Positions 1-7,296 of a stretch of DNA of 7,296 nucleotides are shown here, piece by piece. The translations under genes and the position numbers were made by a program. This stretch comes from a virus. Taxonomy: Duplodnaviria > Heunggongvirae > Uroviricota > Caudoviricetes. Position 1 is the stretch's first letter; every line of letters starts with the position of its first letter. The notes below the pieces were generated by a model. That model was given only the letters and a program-made list of their open reading frames with translations, did not search any database and was not told the DNA's origin. Location: IMG/VR virus record IMGVR_UViG_2609459803_000009; one strand, written 5' to 3'.

Positions 1-1170
1 TCACTCCTCATTTTCTTCTGAGCTGTACTCCACATCGGAGAGTTTAACCTCAAGCTCTAAGCCCGTCGTGAAACCGTTATTATTGAGGTTGTGGGTCACC
101 TTGCTGATTAACCATGCCTGCTCGTCTATGACGCGCTTAAAGCCTGACACGCGTACAGGCGTCTCAGGAAATAAATCCGCTCGCCCTAGCGCCAGTGTGA
201 TTGAAAACTCCGCAACGCCTCGCTGCAGTTTATCCCACTTAGCCTGAGCGGCGCGCATTGCCTGTGCCTTTGAGGCATAGACCGTCGTCAGCGCCAGCAC
301 GTTATCGGCTTCACCGGCCATGTACTCACCCTCACGTGCTTCCTGTTCTTTTTTGACCTTTGTCTTTTTGCTGACCGGCTTTGCTTTTGGGTGTTCCAGT
401 GCGCGCAGGTGCTTCTCTTTTGGCTTGCGTTTCAGCGTTACTTTCTGCTTTTGTGGCTTCGGGTCTTTGGTGTGCAACCATTTAGCAGTGACGCCGGTAT
501 AAGCCCCACGGTCGGCAATGGCAAACTGATGACGGTCACCATCACTGCGGGTCAGCGTCATTTGCGGGACGGGTTTGCCGCTGGCCGTCATCGCACTACC
601 GGCTTTCAGAAACAACAGTTTCCCTGCCTTCACCGATACCGTTGCCCCGTTGCGGTCAGCCAGTCGACTCAAAAATACCGCGTCGGATTCCTGCGACTGG
701 TCGATATGCGGTACCGGGATTTTTTTCAGCGATTCCGCAATGTTGGCCGTCAGTTTGTTGCGCTTTGCGATGGTACTGACCAGTTCGCCGATGGTGGTGT
801 CGTGCCATGACTCTTCACGCCTGGAATTTAGCGTGCCGCGAAAGTCCGCGCTGCGCGCCCGGATGGTCAGGGTATCAGGAGCCCCCCGGTGCTCAATCTC
901 ATCGACCGTAAAATCCCCCTTATTCAGCAGCGCCGAACCCTGCCAGCCAAGCCACAACGTCAGCACTGCCCCGCGCAGGGGTAACTCGACTTTCCCATCG
1001 GTGTCATCGAGCTCAATGTCGAGCTGGTCAGCTTCAAAGCCCCTATTGTCCGTCATGGTGAGAGAAATCAGCCGGTCGCTGAAGTTGCTGGTAATGTCCT
1101 GACTGTTCAGCGTCAGCATAAAAGCCGGTGCAAGGCTGGCACCGGCGTCAATTGCCATCCCCGTTATCAT
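1..1170 (-). CDS. D: P2-type late tail protein D (gpD, baseplate/tail-hub family)
   Basis: 389-aa minus-strand ORF with ATG at 1170-1168 and stop at the window edge (3-1). The translation has the conserved gpD character (RGFEADQLDIELDD, GDFTVDEIEHRGAPD, RSADFRGTLNSRRE, GAYTGVTAKWLH, EGEYMAGEADN) and an internal Lys/Pro-rich stretch. It is last in the conserved FI-FII-E-T-U-D order, and its ATG overlaps the U stop (ATGA). Confidence 0.9.
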   Translation of the reverse strand: MITGMAIDAGASLAPAFMLTLNSQDITSNFSDRLISLTMTDNRGFEADQLDIELDDTDGKVELPLRGAVLTLWLGWQGSALLNKGDFTVDEIEHRGAPDTLTIRARSADFRGTLNSRREESWHDTTIGELVSTIAKRNKLTANIAESLKKIPVPHIDQSQESDAVFLSRLADRNGATVSVKAGKLLFLKAGSAMTASGKPVPQMTLTRSDGDRHQFAIADRGAYTGVTAKWLHTKDPKPQKQKVTLKRKPKEKHLRALEHPKAKPVSKKTKVKKEQEAREGEYMAGEADNVLALTTVYASKAQAMRAAQAKWDKLQRGVAEFSITLALGRADLFPETPVRVSGFKRVIDEQAWLISKVTHNLNNNGFTTGLELEVKLSDVEYSSEENEE

Positions 1171-1652
1171 GCAGTGAAACCTCCGGGCATACCCTGCAGT
1201 TTATCTGTCAAATTACCGGCAGAGCCGAGAAGCTCACTGGCCTGTTTATTCAGGTCACCAAACATCTCTGTCAGCGATTCATCAACCCGTTTTAGCGAAA
1301 GCGTGAAATCAATCTTTCTGGCCGCACCATCACTGAAAAACTCGGTGCGTGTAGTCGATACTTTATCGACGATATACATCCCGAGGATATTTCCGGTTCC
1401 CTCTATCAACGGCCACGCTCTGCCTTCATTGGCCATCACCTCTACAGCCTTTAGTGAGATCCAACCGCCAGTGATAGCGGGGTATAGCGTACCAGCAAGC
1501 TGTATCGAGGTTTCCCCCTCGCCAAGAAACTGATAGGCAGGTGGTTTACCCACCCGGTCATTGGACACCCAGCGATAATCTTTCGAATGCTGCATCGACT
1601 GGTAAGGCAGGGTGCGAAGTTCAAACACAAACATTCCGAGAGCAAGCATCAT
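1167..1652 (-). CDS. U: P2-type tail protein U (gpU, tail completion/terminator-like)
   Basis: 161-aa ORF starting ATGATG at 1652, with a strong Shine-Dalgarno (GAGGGGG) about 8 nt upstream and lying 13 nt after the T stop. Position between T and D and a size of about 160 aa match P2 gpU. The stop TGA (1169-1167) overlaps the D start. Confidence 0.85.
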   Translation of the reverse strand: MMLALGMFVFELRTLPYQSMQHSKDYRWVSNDRVGKPPAYQFLGEGETSIQLAGTLYPAITGGWISLKAVEVMANEGRAWPLIEGTGNILGMYIVDKVSTTRTEFFSDGAARKIDFTLSLKRVDESLTEMFGDLNKQASELLGSAGNLTDKLQGMPGGFTA

Positions 1653-1665
1653 CGTTTAATCCCCC

Positions 1666-4110
1666 TCAATAGTCGTGGGTCATGTTGGCACGCTGGCGGG
1701 CGCGTTTATCGCGCTCAATCTGTTCGAGCGTGTCGCGTAGTTGTCTGTCAAGCTGATGCCCCGGCGCAACACCTCCCGGCAGATTGATGTTGTATTCGCT
1801 TTTGCTCTGGTCAATGTAAGAGCGCCCCGCCGGTGCGGTAACTGGCTGATAAGCCTGATAGCCGCCATATGTGCTGGTTGCCGGGATGTAGGAATTACCC
1901 TGTGTGGCGGCATTGGTTTTGGCGGCGGTCTGGTCGAGGCTGTCCGACTCTTTGTTGATGATGCCGAGCTTTTCGAGAAGCCAGTCGACACCGCTGCGCA
2001 GCTTGTTAAAAACATTGAGCGGAGCCATCAAGGCAGAGGCCAGTGCCTGACCAAATATGACGCCGACATTTTTGCAGCTATCAAGCGTTTCCTGCGTGGC
2101 CTTAACCGGTGCTATCAGGTCTTTAAACCACTGCCAGACGCCGCGCAGTTTCTCGCCGAGACCATCAAAAATGGGAGCCAGTGGAGCGAACATTTCCCCG
2201 ACTGGGGCAAAGGCACTCATGATGCCCTCAATCACTCCCGAGAAAAATGCGCTGATGGGCTCCCAATATTTACGGATGAGTAGCGCCCCCGCCACAATCG
2301 CCGCACCGACGGCCACTATCGGCCAGGTAATCGCACCGAGCGCTGTCGCAATGGCACTACCGACGACAGTAAAGACCGTACCCAGCACGCCAGCAGCGGC
2401 GATAATGGCATTAATTCCCATGACAACCGGCCACGCAACGAGACCAATGCCGCCGATGATACCAATCAGCGCCAGCGCACCACCGGCAATAATCCCGATA
2501 GTTGTCGTCAGCCCTTTGTTTTTCTGGATCCAGCCGTCGAGCTTCAACACGTATTGTGTGGCGGTTTGGGTGAGTTTGCGCAGCGAGCCCTCTTGCTGGT
2601 CAAAAAGGTCGGTACCGACAGCCTCATAAGCAGACTGGAACTCTTTAAAATCACCGCCGAGGTTGTCCTGCATAATTTTAACAAGCTCTGCGGTTTTTCC
2701 GTCTGAGGCTTTCAGGGTGGAGGTTAGCTGGTCAAGTTTGCCGGTTGAGGCGGCAGTCATGAGCACTGCCGCCGCCGAACTGGCTTCCTCACCGAATATC
2801 GTTTTCATGTATTCGGCTTGTTGACCGGTGCCGAGATTGTTACGCTCAAAACTGGCCTGCATTTCCTTGAGGATGGTAAAAATCGGGCGCGTGTTGCCTT
2901 TACTGTCGGAAGTTTTGACACCCAGCTCCTTAAGCGCATCCCACGCTTTACCGGTCGGAGCCTGCAGGCGGCTTAAAACCGCACGGCTCCCGGTGCCGGC
3001 CATCGAGCCGGTGATTTTGGCGTCATGCAGGGCGCCCACCATTGCGGCAGTTTCTTCAATGCTGACACCGGCATTTTTCGCCACCGGCGCGGCGTATGTC
3101 AGCGCATCGCTCAGCCCGTCGAAATCGGCAGCAGTTTTATTCATCACCGTCGACAGAACGTCGCCAATGTGCGCCACCTTGTCATTGGAAAGCTGAAACG
3201 CAGAGCGCATCCCCATCAGTAATGCGGCGTTTTCTTCCATCGTGCGACGGTTGGCAAGCGCCATATTGAGGGTGACCGGTGTCGTCGCCTGAATGGCTGC
3301 CGCATCGCCACCCCCTTTGGCGATAATAATCTGCGCACTGGCTGCATCATCAGCAGAAGCGGCTGTATTGTCACCGAGCTGGCGTGCCTGTTTGCGTAGC
3401 GCCTCCATTTCTGGTGACTGCTTATCGACCCCGAGCACAGCCTGCAGCTCGGAGTTTTTTTGCGCAAAGTCATAACCGGGCATCAGCAATTTAACCCCGG
3501 CCATCGTTCCCGCTGTCGCAATACCGACCCCGGCAGCACCTGCAGCGGCCATGTTACCGGCAAGTTCCTTACCCGATTTATATCGCTCTTTCACTCGGTT
3601 TAGGTGCGCCTGCTGTGCGCTGACCTTCGCCAATGCTTCGCGCTGCCGGTTGAGCTGCGCCGTCGTCTCGCTGATGCGTGTTTTAAGCCCCCGCTCATCG
3701 TTTGCCAGATTGCGGGTATTGATACCGGCGGCACCCAGCTCGCGTTGCTGGCGTTTAACCGACTCGGTGAGGCTGTTGTATTTAACCTGCAGCCCCTCGG
3801 CGGCACGTTTTGCGGATTCGAGCACCTGTGCCTGCGCTCGCGTCGGGCGCTCAGTATTTTTGAATTGCGTGGCAAGCGCTTCAGCCTCGCGCTTTGCCTT
3901 CTCCAGCGACTGGCCGGTTACGGCCAGTTGAGCGCTGGTTTTGCGAAAGCCGTCGATTTTCGCGGCCTGCCCGTTCAGGTCACGCAGCCCTTTTTGTGTG
4001 TCGCGAATATCGCCCGACAGGGTTTTACTCGCGGTCTGGATGGATTTAAGCGGTCGGGTCGCCTGGTCGACCGCTTTCAGCAAAACCTCAAGTCTCAGGT
4101 TATTACTCAT
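1666..4110 (-). CDS. T: Tail tape measure protein (gpT)
   Basis: 814-aa ORF. The N-terminal third is charged and coiled-coil-like (repeated Q/R/E/K/A heptad-like runs). A long Gly/Ala/Ile-rich hydrophobic block sits at about residues 534-612, typical of tape-measure proteins. It lies directly downstream of the E/E' frameshift pair, and its ATG (4110-4108) overlaps the E' stop. Confidence 0.92.
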   Translation of the reverse strand: MSNNLRLEVLLKAVDQATRPLKSIQTASKTLSGDIRDTQKGLRDLNGQAAKIDGFRKTSAQLAVTGQSLEKAKREAEALATQFKNTERPTRAQAQVLESAKRAAEGLQVKYNSLTESVKRQQRELGAAGINTRNLANDERGLKTRISETTAQLNRQREALAKVSAQQAHLNRVKERYKSGKELAGNMAAAGAAGVGIATAGTMAGVKLLMPGYDFAQKNSELQAVLGVDKQSPEMEALRKQARQLGDNTAASADDAASAQIIIAKGGGDAAAIQATTPVTLNMALANRRTMEENAALLMGMRSAFQLSNDKVAHIGDVLSTVMNKTAADFDGLSDALTYAAPVAKNAGVSIEETAAMVGALHDAKITGSMAGTGSRAVLSRLQAPTGKAWDALKELGVKTSDSKGNTRPIFTILKEMQASFERNNLGTGQQAEYMKTIFGEEASSAAAVLMTAASTGKLDQLTSTLKASDGKTAELVKIMQDNLGGDFKEFQSAYEAVGTDLFDQQEGSLRKLTQTATQYVLKLDGWIQKNKGLTTTIGIIAGGALALIGIIGGIGLVAWPVVMGINAIIAAAGVLGTVFTVVGSAIATALGAITWPIVAVGAAIVAGALLIRKYWEPISAFFSGVIEGIMSAFAPVGEMFAPLAPIFDGLGEKLRGVWQWFKDLIAPVKATQETLDSCKNVGVIFGQALASALMAPLNVFNKLRSGVDWLLEKLGIINKESDSLDQTAAKTNAATQGNSYIPATSTYGGYQAYQPVTAPAGRSYIDQSKSEYNINLPGGVAPGHQLDRQLRDTLEQIERDKRARQRANMTHDY

Positions 4111-4590
4111 TGTGGTGTCCGCTACGCTGCAGCGCCTTTTCGCGCCATGTGATGAGCTCGGTCAGGCTCAGGGAATAGAGCTCTGATGGCGACCAGTGGA
4201 ATATCACTGCAATATCCGCCATCAGGTCATCGGTCGACAGGTCGGGCGGAAAATCTACTCCGCCGAAGCCGGTGACAAAAAACCAATCACCTTAGCGGCC
4301 AGCGAAAGCATATCGGGCAGGTTCATCGCGGTTAGCTCCTGCGTGGTGAGCGCGGGATAGGTCATGCGGGGCAGCACTTTAATCAGCGCATCGACCTCGG
4401 ACTGCGCCACCGCCGCCAGACTGACACCGCGCAGGGTACCGGCGTTCGGCTCAATCAGGGTGACTTTATCAATCGTCTGACCGGCGCGCTTAATCGGCTT
4501 GTCGAGGGTCACGACGTTCGGGTTTACGGTGTCAATTTCATTGCCAGCCGTATCAACAAATTCAGCGGTTTTACGTGGTGCTTTTGCCAT
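4103..4590 (-). CDS. E+E': Tail assembly chaperone E+E' (gpE+E'), made by a programmed -1 frameshift at 4282-4276
   Basis: Zero frame 4590 to 4279, then a -1 slip on T-TTT-TTG. The -1 frame stays open for 57 codons (VTGFGGVDFPPDLSTDDLMADIAVIFHWSPSELYSLSLTELITWREKALQRSGHHNE) and ends at TAA 4105-4103, overlapping the T start. The predicted product is about 162 aa. This is the canonical arrangement upstream of tape-measure genes. Confidence 0.8.
4255..4590 (-). CDS. E: Tail assembly chaperone E (gpE, unshifted product)
   Basis: 111-aa ORF with ATG at 4590-4588 and stop TAG at 4257-4255. It sits between FII and T, and the slippery heptamer lies 6 codons before its stop. Confidence 0.85.
   Translation of the reverse strand: MAKAPRKTAEFVDTAGNEIDTVNPNVVTLDKPIKRAGQTIDKVTLIEPNAGTLRGVSLAAVAQSEVDALIKVLPRMTYPALTTQELTAMNLPDMLSLAAKVIGFLSPASAE
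4276..4282 (-). promoter_or_regulatory. Slippery heptanucleotide T-TTT-TTG for -1 programmed ribosomal frameshifting (E to E')
   Basis: The plus strand shows AAAAAA at 4277-4282 plus C at 4276, which is TTTTTTG on the coding strand, in the frame GGT-TTT-TTG of gpE. The -1 frame downstream is open until it overlaps the T start. Confidence 0.8.
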
Positions 4591-4638
4591 GATGTTTTTC
4601 TCTGCTCTGAAAGGGGATTAATAACCGGCCAGCCATGC

Positions 4639-4648
4639 TGACCGGTCA
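4639..4648. repeat. Perfect 10-bp palindrome TGACCGGTCA in the FII-E intergenic spacer, within a larger imperfect dyad CCATGcTGACCGGTCATGG (4633-4651)
   Basis: Read directly from the sequence. It lies in the 63-bp untranslated gap between the FII stop (4654) and the E start (4590). Function is unknown. Confidence 0.5.
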
Positions 4649-4653
4649 TGGAA

Positions 4654-5172
4654 TTACAGCCCGATTGCGCGGCGGTGCTGTTCCAGACGGTCGACGCCGT
4701 TCACCTTCTCGACCATGTTGACGGTGTCGATTTCGATGACGTCGCTACCATCAATCGTCAGGCGGTAATAGGTGCAGACCGTCGACAGTTTGGTCGAGGT
4801 GTTTTCACCCTGCTTATTTTCGCCGCCGTCGATTTCTTTATGACGGCCACGCATGACCACCTCGACCGCGTTGATTTCGCCGGTGTCGTCGCGCTGGTAG
4901 GATCCAGCAAAACGCAGCGGCACAGCGTCAGCACCCGGCGCGGCGTACTGCGCCCACAGAGCCACATCAGGCTGGCCACCGACAGACCACTCGACGGTTA
5001 ACGCATCATCGTCGAGACCGAGGTCAATCGCCGCCGCGCCATTCATGCCGCCGCCGCGATAGTTTTCGAGTTTGCGGGTCAGCTTCGGCAGCGTCACGGA
5101 TTCAACAACGCCCATATAGCTAAGGCCGTCGTTAAACATGTTCAGATATTTGAGTTTGCGGGGTAGTGCCAT
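4654..5172 (-). CDS. FII: Major tail tube protein (gpFII)
   Basis: 172-aa ORF with ATG at 5172-5170 and stop TAA at 4656-4654. A Shine-Dalgarno AGGAG lies in the 15-bp gap after FI. Size and position immediately downstream of the sheath gene match P2 FII. Confidence 0.88.
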   Translation of the reverse strand: MALPRKLKYLNMFNDGLSYMGVVESVTLPKLTRKLENYRGGGMNGAAAIDLGLDDDALTVEWSVGGQPDVALWAQYAAPGADAVPLRFAGSYQRDDTGEINAVEVVMRGRHKEIDGGENKQGENTSTKLSTVCTYYRLTIDGSDVIEIDTVNMVEKVNGVDRLEQHRRAIGL

Positions 5173-5187
5173 GTTGTTTCAGGCTCC

Positions 5188-6366
5188 TTAGCTGTTGACC
5201 GATTCGGCCAGATTCACCAGATATTTATCGGTGATACGCTGGCGCAGGGTCAGGCTTTCCAGTGGTGGAACCGGCGTATAGTCGTAGTCGATATACAGTT
5301 TCCCGGCCTTGAGGGTTTCCTTGTCATTCGATTCCTCGTCGAACCAGCATTCACCGTCCACGATGTAGCCATTTGATTTCAGCTCGCGGAATTTGGCATT
5401 AATGCCGTCGACAATGTCACGGATGAGCGATGCGGTAATGGGCTTATCGACCGCCCACATGTGAGCCTCGGCCATCGTGTCGGCCAGCACCTGCGCGGTG
5501 CGGGTGTAGTTCTCAAACAGGAAAAGCGGGTCATCAGAGCAGGTGCGGTTACCCCAAAAGCGGAAACCATCTTTGCGCACCAGCGTCGTGACCCCGGCCT
5601 CGTTGAGCAGGTCAGCATCGGTACCAGATGCCTGCAAATCCCAAAACACTGAGGCGCTGATGCCGGTGACACCCTGCACGCCGACGTTAGACAGGGTTTT
5701 ATGCCAGCCGACGGTCTGGTCGATGTAGGCGCGCAGGCCGAGTGCGCGCGCAGTGGCGTAGGCTGTTGCAGTGGCGTTCGCGGTGGTGTCCCATGCGAGG
5801 AAATCAGGCCAGATAAGCATCAGTTCGCGCTGGCTGAAATTCTCGCGATAGGCCATCGCCTCGGAAATAGTCTTACAGCCCCATGCACTGACATAGCCAA
5901 AGGCGCGCAGGCTGATACAGACCGACGCAAGTGCGACTGCGACCTCTTTGGTATCGAGCCCCGGCACGCCGAGAATGCGCGGCTTAACGCCGGTGACCGC
6001 TTCGGCAGTCAACAGCGCCTTGATACCGGTGTATTTACCGTTCTCATCCGTGCCGCCGATGATATTTGAAATGGTCTGCGCTTCCGCGTCTTCTCCGGTA
6101 CCTTCGGCAACACGCACGACAACGGTGACGGGCTTTGACTGGTCGGCGATGGCCTGCAGGGAGGCAGACAGCGTGCCTTTTTTACCGGCTTTCGCAATGG
6201 CGCTCTGCACATTGGTAATCAGTACCGGCTCGTTGAGGGGGAATGTCGCGGCATCCGCATCGCTGGCCGTGCAGACCATGCCGACAATTGCGGTTGCAAC
6301 AGTGGAAATGACGCGGGTGCCGTCGTTAATCTCAAGCACCTGCACGCCGTGGTGAAAATCACTCAT
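5188..6366 (-). CDS. FI: Contractile tail sheath protein (gpFI)
   Basis: The open frame runs 6393 to 5188 (401 codons from a TTG). The ATG at 6366-6364 (MSDFHHGVQVLEINDGTR...) has a GGAG Shine-Dalgarno about 9 nt upstream and matches the N-terminus I remember for P2 FI (MSDYHHGVQVLEIN), giving about 392 aa. The protein has a sheath-like size and conserved blocks (FRFWGNRTCSDDPLFLFENYTRTAQ, KLYIDYDYTPVPPLE). Confidence 0.9.
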   Translation of the reverse strand: MSDFHHGVQVLEINDGTRVISTVATAIVGMVCTASDADAATFPLNEPVLITNVQSAIAKAGKKGTLSASLQAIADQSKPVTVVVRVAEGTGEDAEAQTISNIIGGTDENGKYTGIKALLTAEAVTGVKPRILGVPGLDTKEVAVALASVCISLRAFGYVSAWGCKTISEAMAYRENFSQRELMLIWPDFLAWDTTANATATAYATARALGLRAYIDQTVGWHKTLSNVGVQGVTGISASVFWDLQASGTDADLLNEAGVTTLVRKDGFRFWGNRTCSDDPLFLFENYTRTAQVLADTMAEAHMWAVDKPITASLIRDIVDGINAKFRELKSNGYIVDGECWFDEESNDKETLKAGKLYIDYDYTPVPPLESLTLRQRITDKYLVNLAESVNS

Positions 6367-6393
6367 CCGGTTAACTCCGTGGTTAGTGGGCAA

Positions 6394-6464
6394 GTGTTAT
6401 TGTCCTGGCTGGTCTGTTGAGGGGCTATTTGTCAGTGTTGGGCGATGTCTGACACATTGAGACA
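6394..6464 (-). promoter_or_regulatory. Candidate late (activator-dependent) promoter region for the FI operon, with overlapping dyads TGTCAG-N13-CTGACA (6430-6454) and TGTCT-N9-AGACA (6446-6464)
   Basis: This is the only non-coding DNA upstream of FI. The dyad elements contain TGT...ACA half-sites resembling the P2 Ogr/Delta-type late promoter element (TGT-N12-ACA near -55), but the spacing here is N13 and no clear -35 is seen. This is a positional and motif inference only. Confidence 0.3.
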
Positions 6465-6707
6465 TCAGCAACGGATGCGGGAAATTTTTTGTATAGCGTT
6501 GAGATACCCGAGGCGATCCAGTTTCCAGACCACAAGCGTATCGCCCTCTGACAAGGTTCTGAGTAACCTCTTTAGCCCCGGCCAGTCTGATGTTTTGCCG
6601 CTGATTTTATCTTCGAAAATCAGCTCACATCCTGCGCACTCCAGTTCATTTCGCTGTAATGCGGTGTTCTGGTCATTTGTTGATACACGTACATAACCGA
6701 TAAACAT
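6465..6707 (-). pseudogene. Truncated serine DNA invertase (Hin/Gin/Cin/Pin family), N-terminal stub only
   Basis: The 80-aa ORF reads MFIGYVRVSTNDQNTALQRNELECAGCELIFEDKISGKTSDWPGLKRLLRTLSEGDTLVVWKLDRLG, which carries the resolvase/invertase N-terminus with the catalytic-Ser motif YVRVSTNDQ. It then diverges into 13 unrelated codons (YLNAIQKISRIRC) and stops. A full-length enzyme is about 185-190 aa and would run into FI. The C-terminal helix-turn-helix and most of the catalytic domain are absent. Confidence 0.8.
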
Positions 6708-6761
6708 GAGAAATAACCCGGTAAAAAGTCGGGATCATGCCAGCTGAACGGAATATCTGCA

Positions 6762-6787
6762 TTTTCTAAAAGGTTGGTTTGGGAGAA
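6762..6787. other. Candidate invertase crossover site (hix/gix/cix-like 26-bp site): TTTTCTAAAAGG-TT-GGTTTGGGAGAA
   Basis: The right half GGTTTGGGAGAA resembles the GGTTTTNGATAA half-site of gix/hix as I recall it; the left half is degenerate. The site sits exactly where the start-less tail-fibre frame opens (after TAA at 6767-6769) and about 60 bp upstream of the invertase ATG, as in Mu and Salmonella Hin systems. Similarity was judged by eye. Confidence 0.35.
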
Positions 6788-7123
6788 TTATCTCTGGCTG
6801 GCACTGCATCGGGTGTCATTGGTCTGAATGGGTATGTAACGATTCCGTTAATTATTTCAGGTTCCCGGAGAACACTGATTATTCAGTGGGGGCAGGCGAG
6901 ATTTGGTGGGTCTGGTGGTGAAGATGCCGGATATCTTAATGATTTTCCTTTTGCCTTTCCGTCAGCATGTTATGGAATGATAGTTAGTCATGTGGGGCAT
7001 ACACCTTCAGGCGCAGGAATCCTGTCGGCTTCTGCAATTACATCAAATCAGTTCCGCGGTTTTTCAAGCATAGCGACTGCTGCAAACGCTGTATTAGGTC
7101 GTTATATCGCTATAGGGGTGTAA
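6770..7123 (+). CDS. Tail-fibre C-terminal (receptor-binding) variable segment, probably the alternative, currently uncoupled arm of an invertible segment
   Basis: The plus-strand frame is open from 6770 and stops at TAA 7121-7123. It has no ATG or convincing ribosome-binding site (the ORF track starts it at TTG 6779). It is oriented opposite to the late operon and is followed 1 nt later by a coupled tail-fibre assembly gene. The region is AT-rich. The product is Gly/Ser-rich, about 115 aa, as expected for a fibre tip domain. Confidence 0.5.
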   Translation, partial: KVGLGELSLAGTASGVIGLNGYVTIPLIISGSRRTLIIQWGQARFGGSGGEDAGYLNDFPFAFPSACYGMIVSHVGHTPSGAGILSASAITSNQFRGFSSIATAANAVLGRYIAIGV

Positions 7124-7124
7124 T

Positions 7125-7296
7125 ATGTTTTATAGTCCATCTTTAAACATTTTTGTGAATCCTGCACTTAAGGATGATTACATTAATGCAAATTCATGGC
7201 CAGATGATGCTCTGGCTGTCAGTGATGATGTTTATAATGAATTTGCAATCAATACGCCTCCAGATGACAAAATTCGTGTTGCAGGAAAAAATGGAT
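7125..7296 (+). CDS. Tail fibre assembly protein (Tfa/gpG-like chaperone), N-terminal 57 codons, truncated by the window end
   Basis: ATG at 7125-7127 with a Shine-Dalgarno AGGGG about 7 nt upstream, directly after the fibre-segment stop (TAATATG). The translation MFYSPSLNIFVNPALKDDYINANSWPDDALAVSDDVYNEFAINTPPDDKIRVAGKNG resembles the N-terminus I recall for the Tfa family (aromatic-Ser start, then SWP.DA...S...Y.E). It is below the ORF-track length cut-off, so it was found by reading the sequence. Confidence 0.6.
   Translation, partial: MFYSPSLNIFVNPALKDDYINANSWPDDALAVSDDVYNEFAINTPPDDKIRVAGKNG

Follow-up and report, generated by a model that had tools for sequence, protein, structure and literature searches.

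Does the loss of a DNA invertase gene bring the host-range switch beside it to a standstill? The question is raised by a short open reading frame in the window analysed here, a stretch of 7,296 nucleotides that, when read on the minus strand, represents the tail module of a P2-like (Peduoviridae) prophage and whose positions 1-6787 are 100.000% identical to the prophage beside rplS in E. coli EC6622. Between a tail-fibre cassette and the tail sheath gene FI, the window encodes an 80-aa product that begins as a serine invertase and ends long before one would be complete. A first-pass annotation, made from the sequence of the window alone, had taken it for an invertase stub left by a deletion reaching to the FI promoter, with the adjacent host-range segment frozen in one orientation unless an invertase acts in trans. 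Comparison with related prophages leads to a different answer: the open reading frame is very probably the pseudogene of a switch invertase that suffered an internal, out-of-frame deletion of ~311 bp, and the segment still inverts in carriers of the allele, probably through an invertase supplied in trans. Both this kind of pseudogene and its in-trans consequence are already known from the literature (PMC4134206) and from RefSeq annotation. The features of the window are listed below.

1-1170, minus strand: gpD
Between gpD and the tape measure gene, minus strand: gpU
1666-4110, minus strand: tape measure gene
Between the tape measure gene and FII, minus strand: gpE
4654-5172, minus strand: FII
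5188-6366, minus strand: FI, the tail sheath gene and first of the downstream late operon (Phage_sheath domains; RefSeq coordinates in the EC6622 prophage)
6390-6457, minus strand: FI late promoter region, by homology to phage 186
6425-6508, minus strand: 3' remnant of the invertase gene, out of frame, comprising its last 27 codons (GISTLYKKFPASVADVSMCQTSPNTDK) with the ancestral stop at 6425-6427
6465-6707, minus strand: invertase stub open reading frame, 80 aa, PF00239 match, Gin/Pin-type
6508-6509, minus strand: deletion junction, where the pairwise match to intact genes is interrupted (between 6509 and 6508)
6622-6689, minus strand: enhancer-homologous stretch, by homology to the putative P7 cin enhancer
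6762-6787: 26-bp crossover site at the invertase-proximal end of the segment, reading TTTTCTAAAAGG TT GGTTTGGGAGAA on the plus strand, core dinucleotide at 6774-6775
6779-7123, plus strand: silent tail-fibre C-terminal cassette, gp53-like (PF21882, E 9.4e-13)
7125-7296, plus strand: 5' part of the tail-fibre assembly gene of the silent cassette, running off the window (near-identical copies are annotated 'tail fiber assembly protein')

It is evident that the first part of the stub is authentic. The protein, with the N-terminus MFIGYVRVSTNDQ..., retains the nucleophile Ser9 within YVRVSTNDQ, matches PF00239 (Resolvase) over profile positions 2-76 of 145 (E 6.8e-20) and corresponds to residues 1-68 of Mu Gin, the structure of which has been solved (PDB 4M6F, 193 aa; E 2.4e-29), all of which bears out the Hin/Gin/Cin/Pin-type N-terminus with active-site serine that was initially proposed. 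Residues 1-67, ending in WKLDRLG, can be aligned without a gap to those of five further invertases, namely Cin, Gin and three from prophages (one annotated pinE), and the authentic codons thus number 67 and not the 66 first counted, a difference that is immaterial to the kind of gene. From there on the alignment ends as abruptly as the first-pass annotation had described: codons 68-80 specify 13 unrelated residues (YLNAIQKISRIRC), an out-of-frame read-through, before the stop at 6465, which lies 98 bp from the FI start codon (6366-6364), where about 100 bp had been estimated. Residue 68 is Y, and all intact relatives have R in this position, the arginine after DRLG; the catalytic domain is incomplete, profile positions ~77-145 with this arginine and the helix-E oligomerisation region being unmatched. 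Further, Pfam found no PF02796 (HTH_7) in the 80-aa open reading frame and no detectable HTH domain in the other two frames of the stub tail; its silence on the out-of-frame tail is explained by the fact that only ~12 residues of the HTH region are left there (GISTLYKKFPAS). The Pfam check thus agrees with the predicted absence of the C-terminal domain, PF00239 being partial and PF02796 missing from every frame, and the possibility that the product is a complete protein of another family does not hold, given that it matches Gin residues 1-68 and is truncated. RefSeq describes the equivalent locus of sister genomes in the same sense, as a pseudogene ('recombinase family protein; incomplete; missing C-terminus').

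The region absent from the stub comprises what we take, from serine-recombinase architecture, to be the helix-E dimer/tetramer interface and the DNA-binding domain. Because these regions are missing, and in view of that architecture, the stub product should be inactive, with no crossover-site binding, dimerisation or catalysis to be expected of it. As judged from its sequence, the stub is a pseudogene derived from a member of the serine invertase family, and no functional member. Codon 42 (6582-6584) carries an additional change, consistent with relaxed constraint: it is TGG (Trp) in the stub, where the other six invertases compared have the Arg of the conserved DRPGL/ERPGL/NRPGL, and the Trp codon is common to all carriers examined.

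How much of the gene has been lost, and from where, could be established from intact relatives. Aligned to the intact genes of SC455 and pro483, the stub follows them as far as gene nt ~200 and picks up again at ~511-512 (alignment positions 291 and 603), and a gap of the same size separates it from the 30EVA2 gene, itself frameshifted (alignment positions 289 to 601). The break falls at the place near 6508-6510 where the junction had been expected. Missing from the ancestral gene are ~311 bp, from codon 68 to ~codon 171 (~104 codons), a length that is not a multiple of 3 and that covers the remaining catalytic domain, helix E and nearly the whole HTH. The junction was placed by custom pairwise alignments and frame translations; in three-way MAFFT alignments the large gap came to lie in the wrong place, and the 3' remnant was obscured. 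A simple frameshift was rejected as the cause of the truncation, ~311 bp (~104 codons) being physically absent and no frame encoding an HTH, and the earlier call of a real deletion, as opposed to an invertase merely continuing in another frame to an intact HTH, is in this respect upheld.

The tail that follows the junction is what remains of the same gene. Frame +1 of the tail, followed by a stop, reads as the C-terminus of intact invertases, of which that of A15 has the sequence DVGISTLYKKFPATN... and those of SC455 and pro483 the sequence GLSTLYKKFPSS...; a tblastn search with the 27 remnant residues gave full-length matches, and these only at the 3' ends of P2-like phage invertase genes. 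By blastn, 6367-6509 runs colinear with the last part of an intact recombinase gene and the FI upstream region (E 2e-6). The remnant has ~70% DNA identity and 52-59% protein identity to the intact genes. The junction itself reads CTCGG/GTATC, where the stroke marks the break, and a 2-3 bp microhomology in the G run is possible. Complete E. coli genomes yielded no near-identical intact ancestor that would fix the breakpoints and the microhomology; the N-terminal match that came closest there was the frameshifted gene of 30EVA2, at 90.4% DNA identity. That gene (locus 4646-5199), annotated as frameshifted, is part of a P2-like tail module of different organisation, in which its neighbour is gpU in place of FI; here too, an invertase beside an invertible tail-fibre segment has been damaged, and independently so.

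The interval between the stub and FI is likewise accounted for. The pJ promoter of phage 186 maps to 6390-6427 and the site of the B protein (the B/Ogr activator) to 6439-6457, both within 6366-6457, a stretch that follows the pJ region of phage 186 colinearly with ~90% identity. The ancestral stop lies inside the pJ-homologous region and downstream of the B/Ogr site homologue, so that in the intact ancestor the FI late promoter shared sequence with the end of the invertase gene. In the intact relatives pro483, SC455 and A15, only ~59-64 bp separate the invertase stop from FI. Going by this homology, the FI late promoter is intact and partly overlaps the 3' remnant. No Z/fun-type cargo gene or remnant of one is present from the tail-fibre module to the FI promoter, this interval running colinear both with relatives that have an intact invertase and with phage 186.

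These observations bear on the extent of the deletion as first conceived, namely one that took the 3' half of the invertase and everything down to the FI promoter, including the Z/fun-type moron slot known from P2, and left the segment frozen. Such a larger deletion would explain why the catalytic-domain alignment stops abruptly after WKLDRLG and why FI begins only 98 bp past the stop. However, the tail is the real 3' end of the gene read out of frame, with the last 27 codons surviving at 6425-6508; the distance and the sequence from the remnant to FI are colinear with those of pro483, SC455 and A15; the pJ promoter and the B site of phage 186 both have their homologues here; the supposed moron slot holds nothing except invertase remnant and FI promoter; and carriers show both orientations of the segment. 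The larger deletion is hence highly improbable. Because the tail is the genuine 3' end out of frame and the promoter region is colinear, the deletion was internal to the gene, and a single out-of-frame event of ~311 bp would have joined codon 67 to the last 27 codons.

On the other side of the stub lies the crossover site at which all matches to sister prophages end (6787). In unrelated prophages, the closest copies of the cassette (99.6-99.8%) begin to be identical at the core dinucleotide, position 6774. The window holds one such site, and its partner would lie beyond the window end at 7296; most sister loci checked, including the EC6622 prophage, have exactly two inverted 26-bp sites that bound a segment of 1.45-1.94 kb, the second being inside the tail-fibre gene. 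The site pair was not seen in two decayed or rearranged loci (L019 and L028). The silent cassette, which lacks the constant N-terminal part and faces the stub, is found 99-99.8% identical and fused in frame to the tail-fibre gene in other prophages. Together with its tail-fibre assembly gene it runs on the plus strand, opposed to the minus-strand late genes, and the full mirror arrangement is found in sister loci.

The cassettes have a history of their own. Copies of the window's cassette (6774-7296) reside in PSJ-12 (L013, 6001-6523), a P2-like prophage with an intact 188-aa invertase, and in PM06121 (L014, 6001-6532), a differently organised prophage with pinE beside ssrA, and cassettes have evidently been exchanged between prophage types at or near such crossover sites. 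Five or more different cassette contents are found on backbones that share at least 99.97% identity with the window. EC6622 (L005) and TK3888 (L006), compared over 7962-8948, share the silent cassette and differ in the expressed one (as seen also in L022 and L024), the replaced block being bounded by the crossover site and the overlapping 3' ends of two tail-fibre assembly genes. The window's own cassette was found beside the stub in none of ten diverse loci encoding the exact stub protein, nor in the other public loci retrieved. In E. coli TW10598 (CP035846.1, L028, locus 1168-4460), one crossover site only was found; a 156-aa Collar-domain fragment adjoins the terminase and portal genes, the baseplate genes and the constant tail-fibre part are absent, and the prophage appears to have been rearranged or deleted from the second-site position on. 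In GCA_014462855.1 (L019, locus ~3409-5920), changes in the stub-proximal crossover site, at the equivalents of window positions 6776 and 6778, and the absence of a called tail-fibre gene between gpI and the stub suggest that the switch has decayed.

Does the segment move where the stub is the only invertase sequence at the locus? Both orientations occur among carriers of the stub allele, in three genome pairs: CH423 and CH425, EC12 and EC15, and E1535 and GCA_038701435. The 8.4-kb locus of CH425 is that of CH423 after one inversion, base for base, with breakpoints inside the crossover sites; these chromosomes, together with that of CH458, stem from one hospital (CH423, 4,740,904 bp; CH425, 4,740,899 bp; CH458, 4,740,891 bp), and CH458 has the orientation of CH423, CH425 being inverted. 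EC15 is similarly EC12 after one inversion, base for base, and in both pairs the flanks are 100% identical and the breakpoints fall within the shared core and inner half-site. Between E1535 and GCA_038701435 the segment is inverted, with 99.67% identity, and carries along a SNP of the inner half-site. The segment in carriers of the stub allele is not frozen, contrary to the fixed orientation that had been proposed for it. Differences in orientation between assemblies are read here as inversion having occurred in these sister lineages; they imply no rate and do not extend to every carrier, and the genome of the window lies outside the three pairs.

It could be argued that no site-specific invertase working in trans lies behind these differences, and that they stem from homologous recombination or from errors of assembly, the more so as such an invertase is known only in the form of counted candidate loci. 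Against this stand several observations. The two segment ends have only 10-15 exact bp in common, which was judged too short for RecA-type recombination and is the reason for regarding the inversions as site-specific; the breakpoints lie inside the 26-bp sites, and a single clean inversion recreates the sister sequence base for base; the inversion is seen in three independent lineages; and long reads provide a precedent in the prophages of EC958, one of which has a truncated invertase (PMC4134206). Recombination or misassembly is, on balance, a very improbable source of the two orientations.

Since residues are missing and the frame is lost, the locus cannot supply its own enzyme, and the source must be sought elsewhere in the cell. 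Complete E. coli genomes were searched with a query made of 12 tandem junction copies, by which carriers rank top, and the deleted central region of four invertase types. Any match to this combined query was returned by 4627 of 5426 genomes, and 34 of the 35 carrier chromosomes had 1-3 further loci matching the deleted invertase region, in terms of locus counts only; in the remaining carrier, AST217, the same search gave no extra invertase-region locus. The junction sequence alone occurs in a single place in each of the 35 carriers, and it follows that what the extra places match is the part of the invertase gene missing from the stub. Most probably, inversion is catalysed by a different member of this invertase family whose gene is located elsewhere in the cell, the candidate loci being known by count, and help in trans, already named as an escape route in the first-pass annotation, is the relevant one. 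Cross-complementation among Gin, Cin, Pin and Hin fits with classical genetics. In EC958, the prophage Phi4 has a truncated invertase and both orientations in PacBio reads, from which it was concluded that the invertase of another prophage brings about inversion in trans (Forde et al. 2014; PMC4134206).

A mechanism can be envisaged along these lines. The stub has kept Ser9 and lost the arginine after DRLG, the helix-E region and the HTH, and would be inactive as an enzyme. The DNA around it would still work in cis, by way of the crossover site at 6762-6787, probably a Fis enhancer in the 5' 200 nt of the gene, and the FI late promoter. A member of this invertase family, supplied from another locus in the cell, would carry out the precise inversion at the two crossover sites that sister genomes display.

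Of 5426 complete E. coli genomes, 35 contain this very junction, as does the phage record vB_EcoM-613R3, and an index of public assemblies lists the 80-aa product, unchanged, in 276 blocks; given these 35 genomes and 276 assembly blocks, the stub is no artefact. The open reading frame exists in three states.

80 aa, as in the window: window, EC6622, TK3888, EC12, EC15
44 aa, through a 1-bp deletion in the G run: CH423, CH425, E1535
104 aa, through a 4-bp ATCA duplication: 613R3

Match lengths among the 35 genomes are 408, 407 and 412 nt, which suggests that the carriers may be assigned to the same three states. The extra frameshifts in sister copies indicate a decaying pseudogene, the open reading frame of which is not maintained.

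This decay also weighs on the idea that the 80-aa product is a functional small protein, for example a catalytic-domain fragment that modulates the inversion carried out by resident invertases. The open reading frame is intact and identical in many assemblies, and the surrounding 500 bp are nearly invariant in carriers with a ~5% difference in their tail genes, as such a function might lead one to expect. However, it has been broken in two other ways (44 aa and 104 aa), and the lineage with the 44-aa version, CH423 and CH425, still inverts its segment. The fragment would moreover have neither the helix-E dimer/tetramer interface nor the DNA-binding domain, going by what is known of the family; W has replaced the conserved R of DRPGL; a simple scan of 6340-6840 returned neither a sigma-70-like promoter nor a terminator; and for the near-invariance of its surroundings it suffices that the deletion arose once, recently, on a mosaic backbone. 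A functional small protein is accordingly difficult to credit.

The near-invariant island extends over ~500 bp (6287-6787) and takes in the 5' end of FI, the stub and the crossover site, over which the window and diverged carriers are 99-100% identical. In the same diverged carriers, FI, FII and gpE are ~5% different from the window and gpT up to 16% (compared over 1666-6286), and the SNP density falls sharply past 6286. The loci compared for the island were L001, L004, L008, L011, L019-L021, L025 and L028. The pattern looks like a mosaic breakpoint around a recent, shared deletion allele.

Part of the island may matter in cis. The P7 record places the recombinational (Fis) enhancer of cin, labelled 'putative', at gene nt 19-86, that is in the 5' coding region, and the homologous stretch of the stub is likewise in the 5' coding region, with 56 of 68 positions identical over 6622-6689 and 142 of 200 over the first 200 nt overall. 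Two G-N13-C motifs fall inside this stretch, in 6623-6686. The retained 5' 200 nt are where cin and hin have their Fis enhancer (PMC2724282; PMC3798978), and the distance of the stretch from the core of the crossover site, 86-153 bp, is in line with that of the Hin enhancer, which lies ~100 bp from its site (PMC3798978). The stretch is presumed to be the cis-acting Fis enhancer of the switch, and since it is kept within the 5' 200 nt, the presumptive enhancer was spared by the deletion.

One may then ask whether the stub DNA has been kept by selection as a cis-element, with the Fis enhancer at its 5' end, the FI promoter at its 3' end and the invertase function outsourced, such that deletions removing the 5' part abolish switching and get lost. 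The deletion spares exactly the stretch homologous to the cin enhancer and the FI promoter, switching persists in carriers, and a near-identical island of ~500 bp sits on diverged backbones, all of which would fit. The allele would then be a selected minimal cis-module made up of the site, the enhancer and the FI promoter in its last 80 nt, spread as a ~500-bp island over backbones that are ~5% different; this form of the idea is possible and at the same time rather unlikely. If true, it would mean that a P2-like prophage keeps host-range switching while relying on the invertases of co-resident prophages. The island pattern, however, is predicted just as well by a single recent origin and ordinary phage mosaicism, and there was only one deletion event, and therefore no replication from which selection could be inferred. 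Maintenance of the stub DNA by selection is thus regarded as unlikely, and the pseudogene left by one internal deletion, with inversion probably provided in trans, remains the preferred reading.

The locus can be placed among known switches of this kind. It is like the G segment of Mu with Gin, the C segment of P1 and P7 with Cin and the P segment of e14 with Pin, which are host-range switches operated by Fis-dependent serine invertases, and the gapless alignment of the first 67 stub residues holds for Gin, Cin and the pinE-annotated invertase. With these switches it shares the 26-bp site with a central dinucleotide at the boundary of constant and variable tail-fibre parts, and opposed cassettes of a tail-fibre C-terminus and an assembly gene. 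As in the Mu-like phage D108, the 5' end of the invertase gene abuts one of the sites. Unlike in the G, C and P switches, the invertase here is without residues ~68-171 and has its last 27 codons out of frame, and the switch lies in a P2-like (Peduoviridae) prophage, between the tail-fibre genes and FI.

Closer counterparts exist with the gene intact, in ORF35 of pro483 and in E. coli SC455 (WP_063108162.1), A15 (WP_047674571.1) and PSJ-12 (WP_102597147.1). These P2-like invertases occupy the position of the stub, from the silent cassette to FI, with the same site architecture and with a 3' end that is colinear with the FI upstream region. They are 188-197 aa in length as compared to the 80 aa of the stub, and their N-terminal nucleotide identity to it is ~74-80%; the pro483 invertase (197 aa) has both PF00239 and PF02796 (HTH_7, E 4.4e-13), and the stub has no HTH_7. 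The nearest precedent for the damaged state is EC958_1582 of EC958 Phi4, a severely truncated invertase without PF02796 beside a tail-fibre switch that is found in both orientations (PMC4134206). Phi4 is a different prophage, the crossover site of which reads TTATCGAATACCTC GGTTTACAGGAA, as against TTTTCTAAAAGGTT GGTTTGGGAGAA here.

For annotation, this means that the 80-aa open reading frame should count as a pseudogene. A host-range switch is not necessarily locked because its local invertase is dead, and the orientation recorded in one assembly is a snapshot only. Further, co-resident prophages are functionally coupled through shared invertases, as has been argued before for EC958 (PMC4134206). 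Finally, and as a more modest point, a dead gene may still carry DNA that acts in cis, in this case a presumptive enhancer and part of the FI promoter region.
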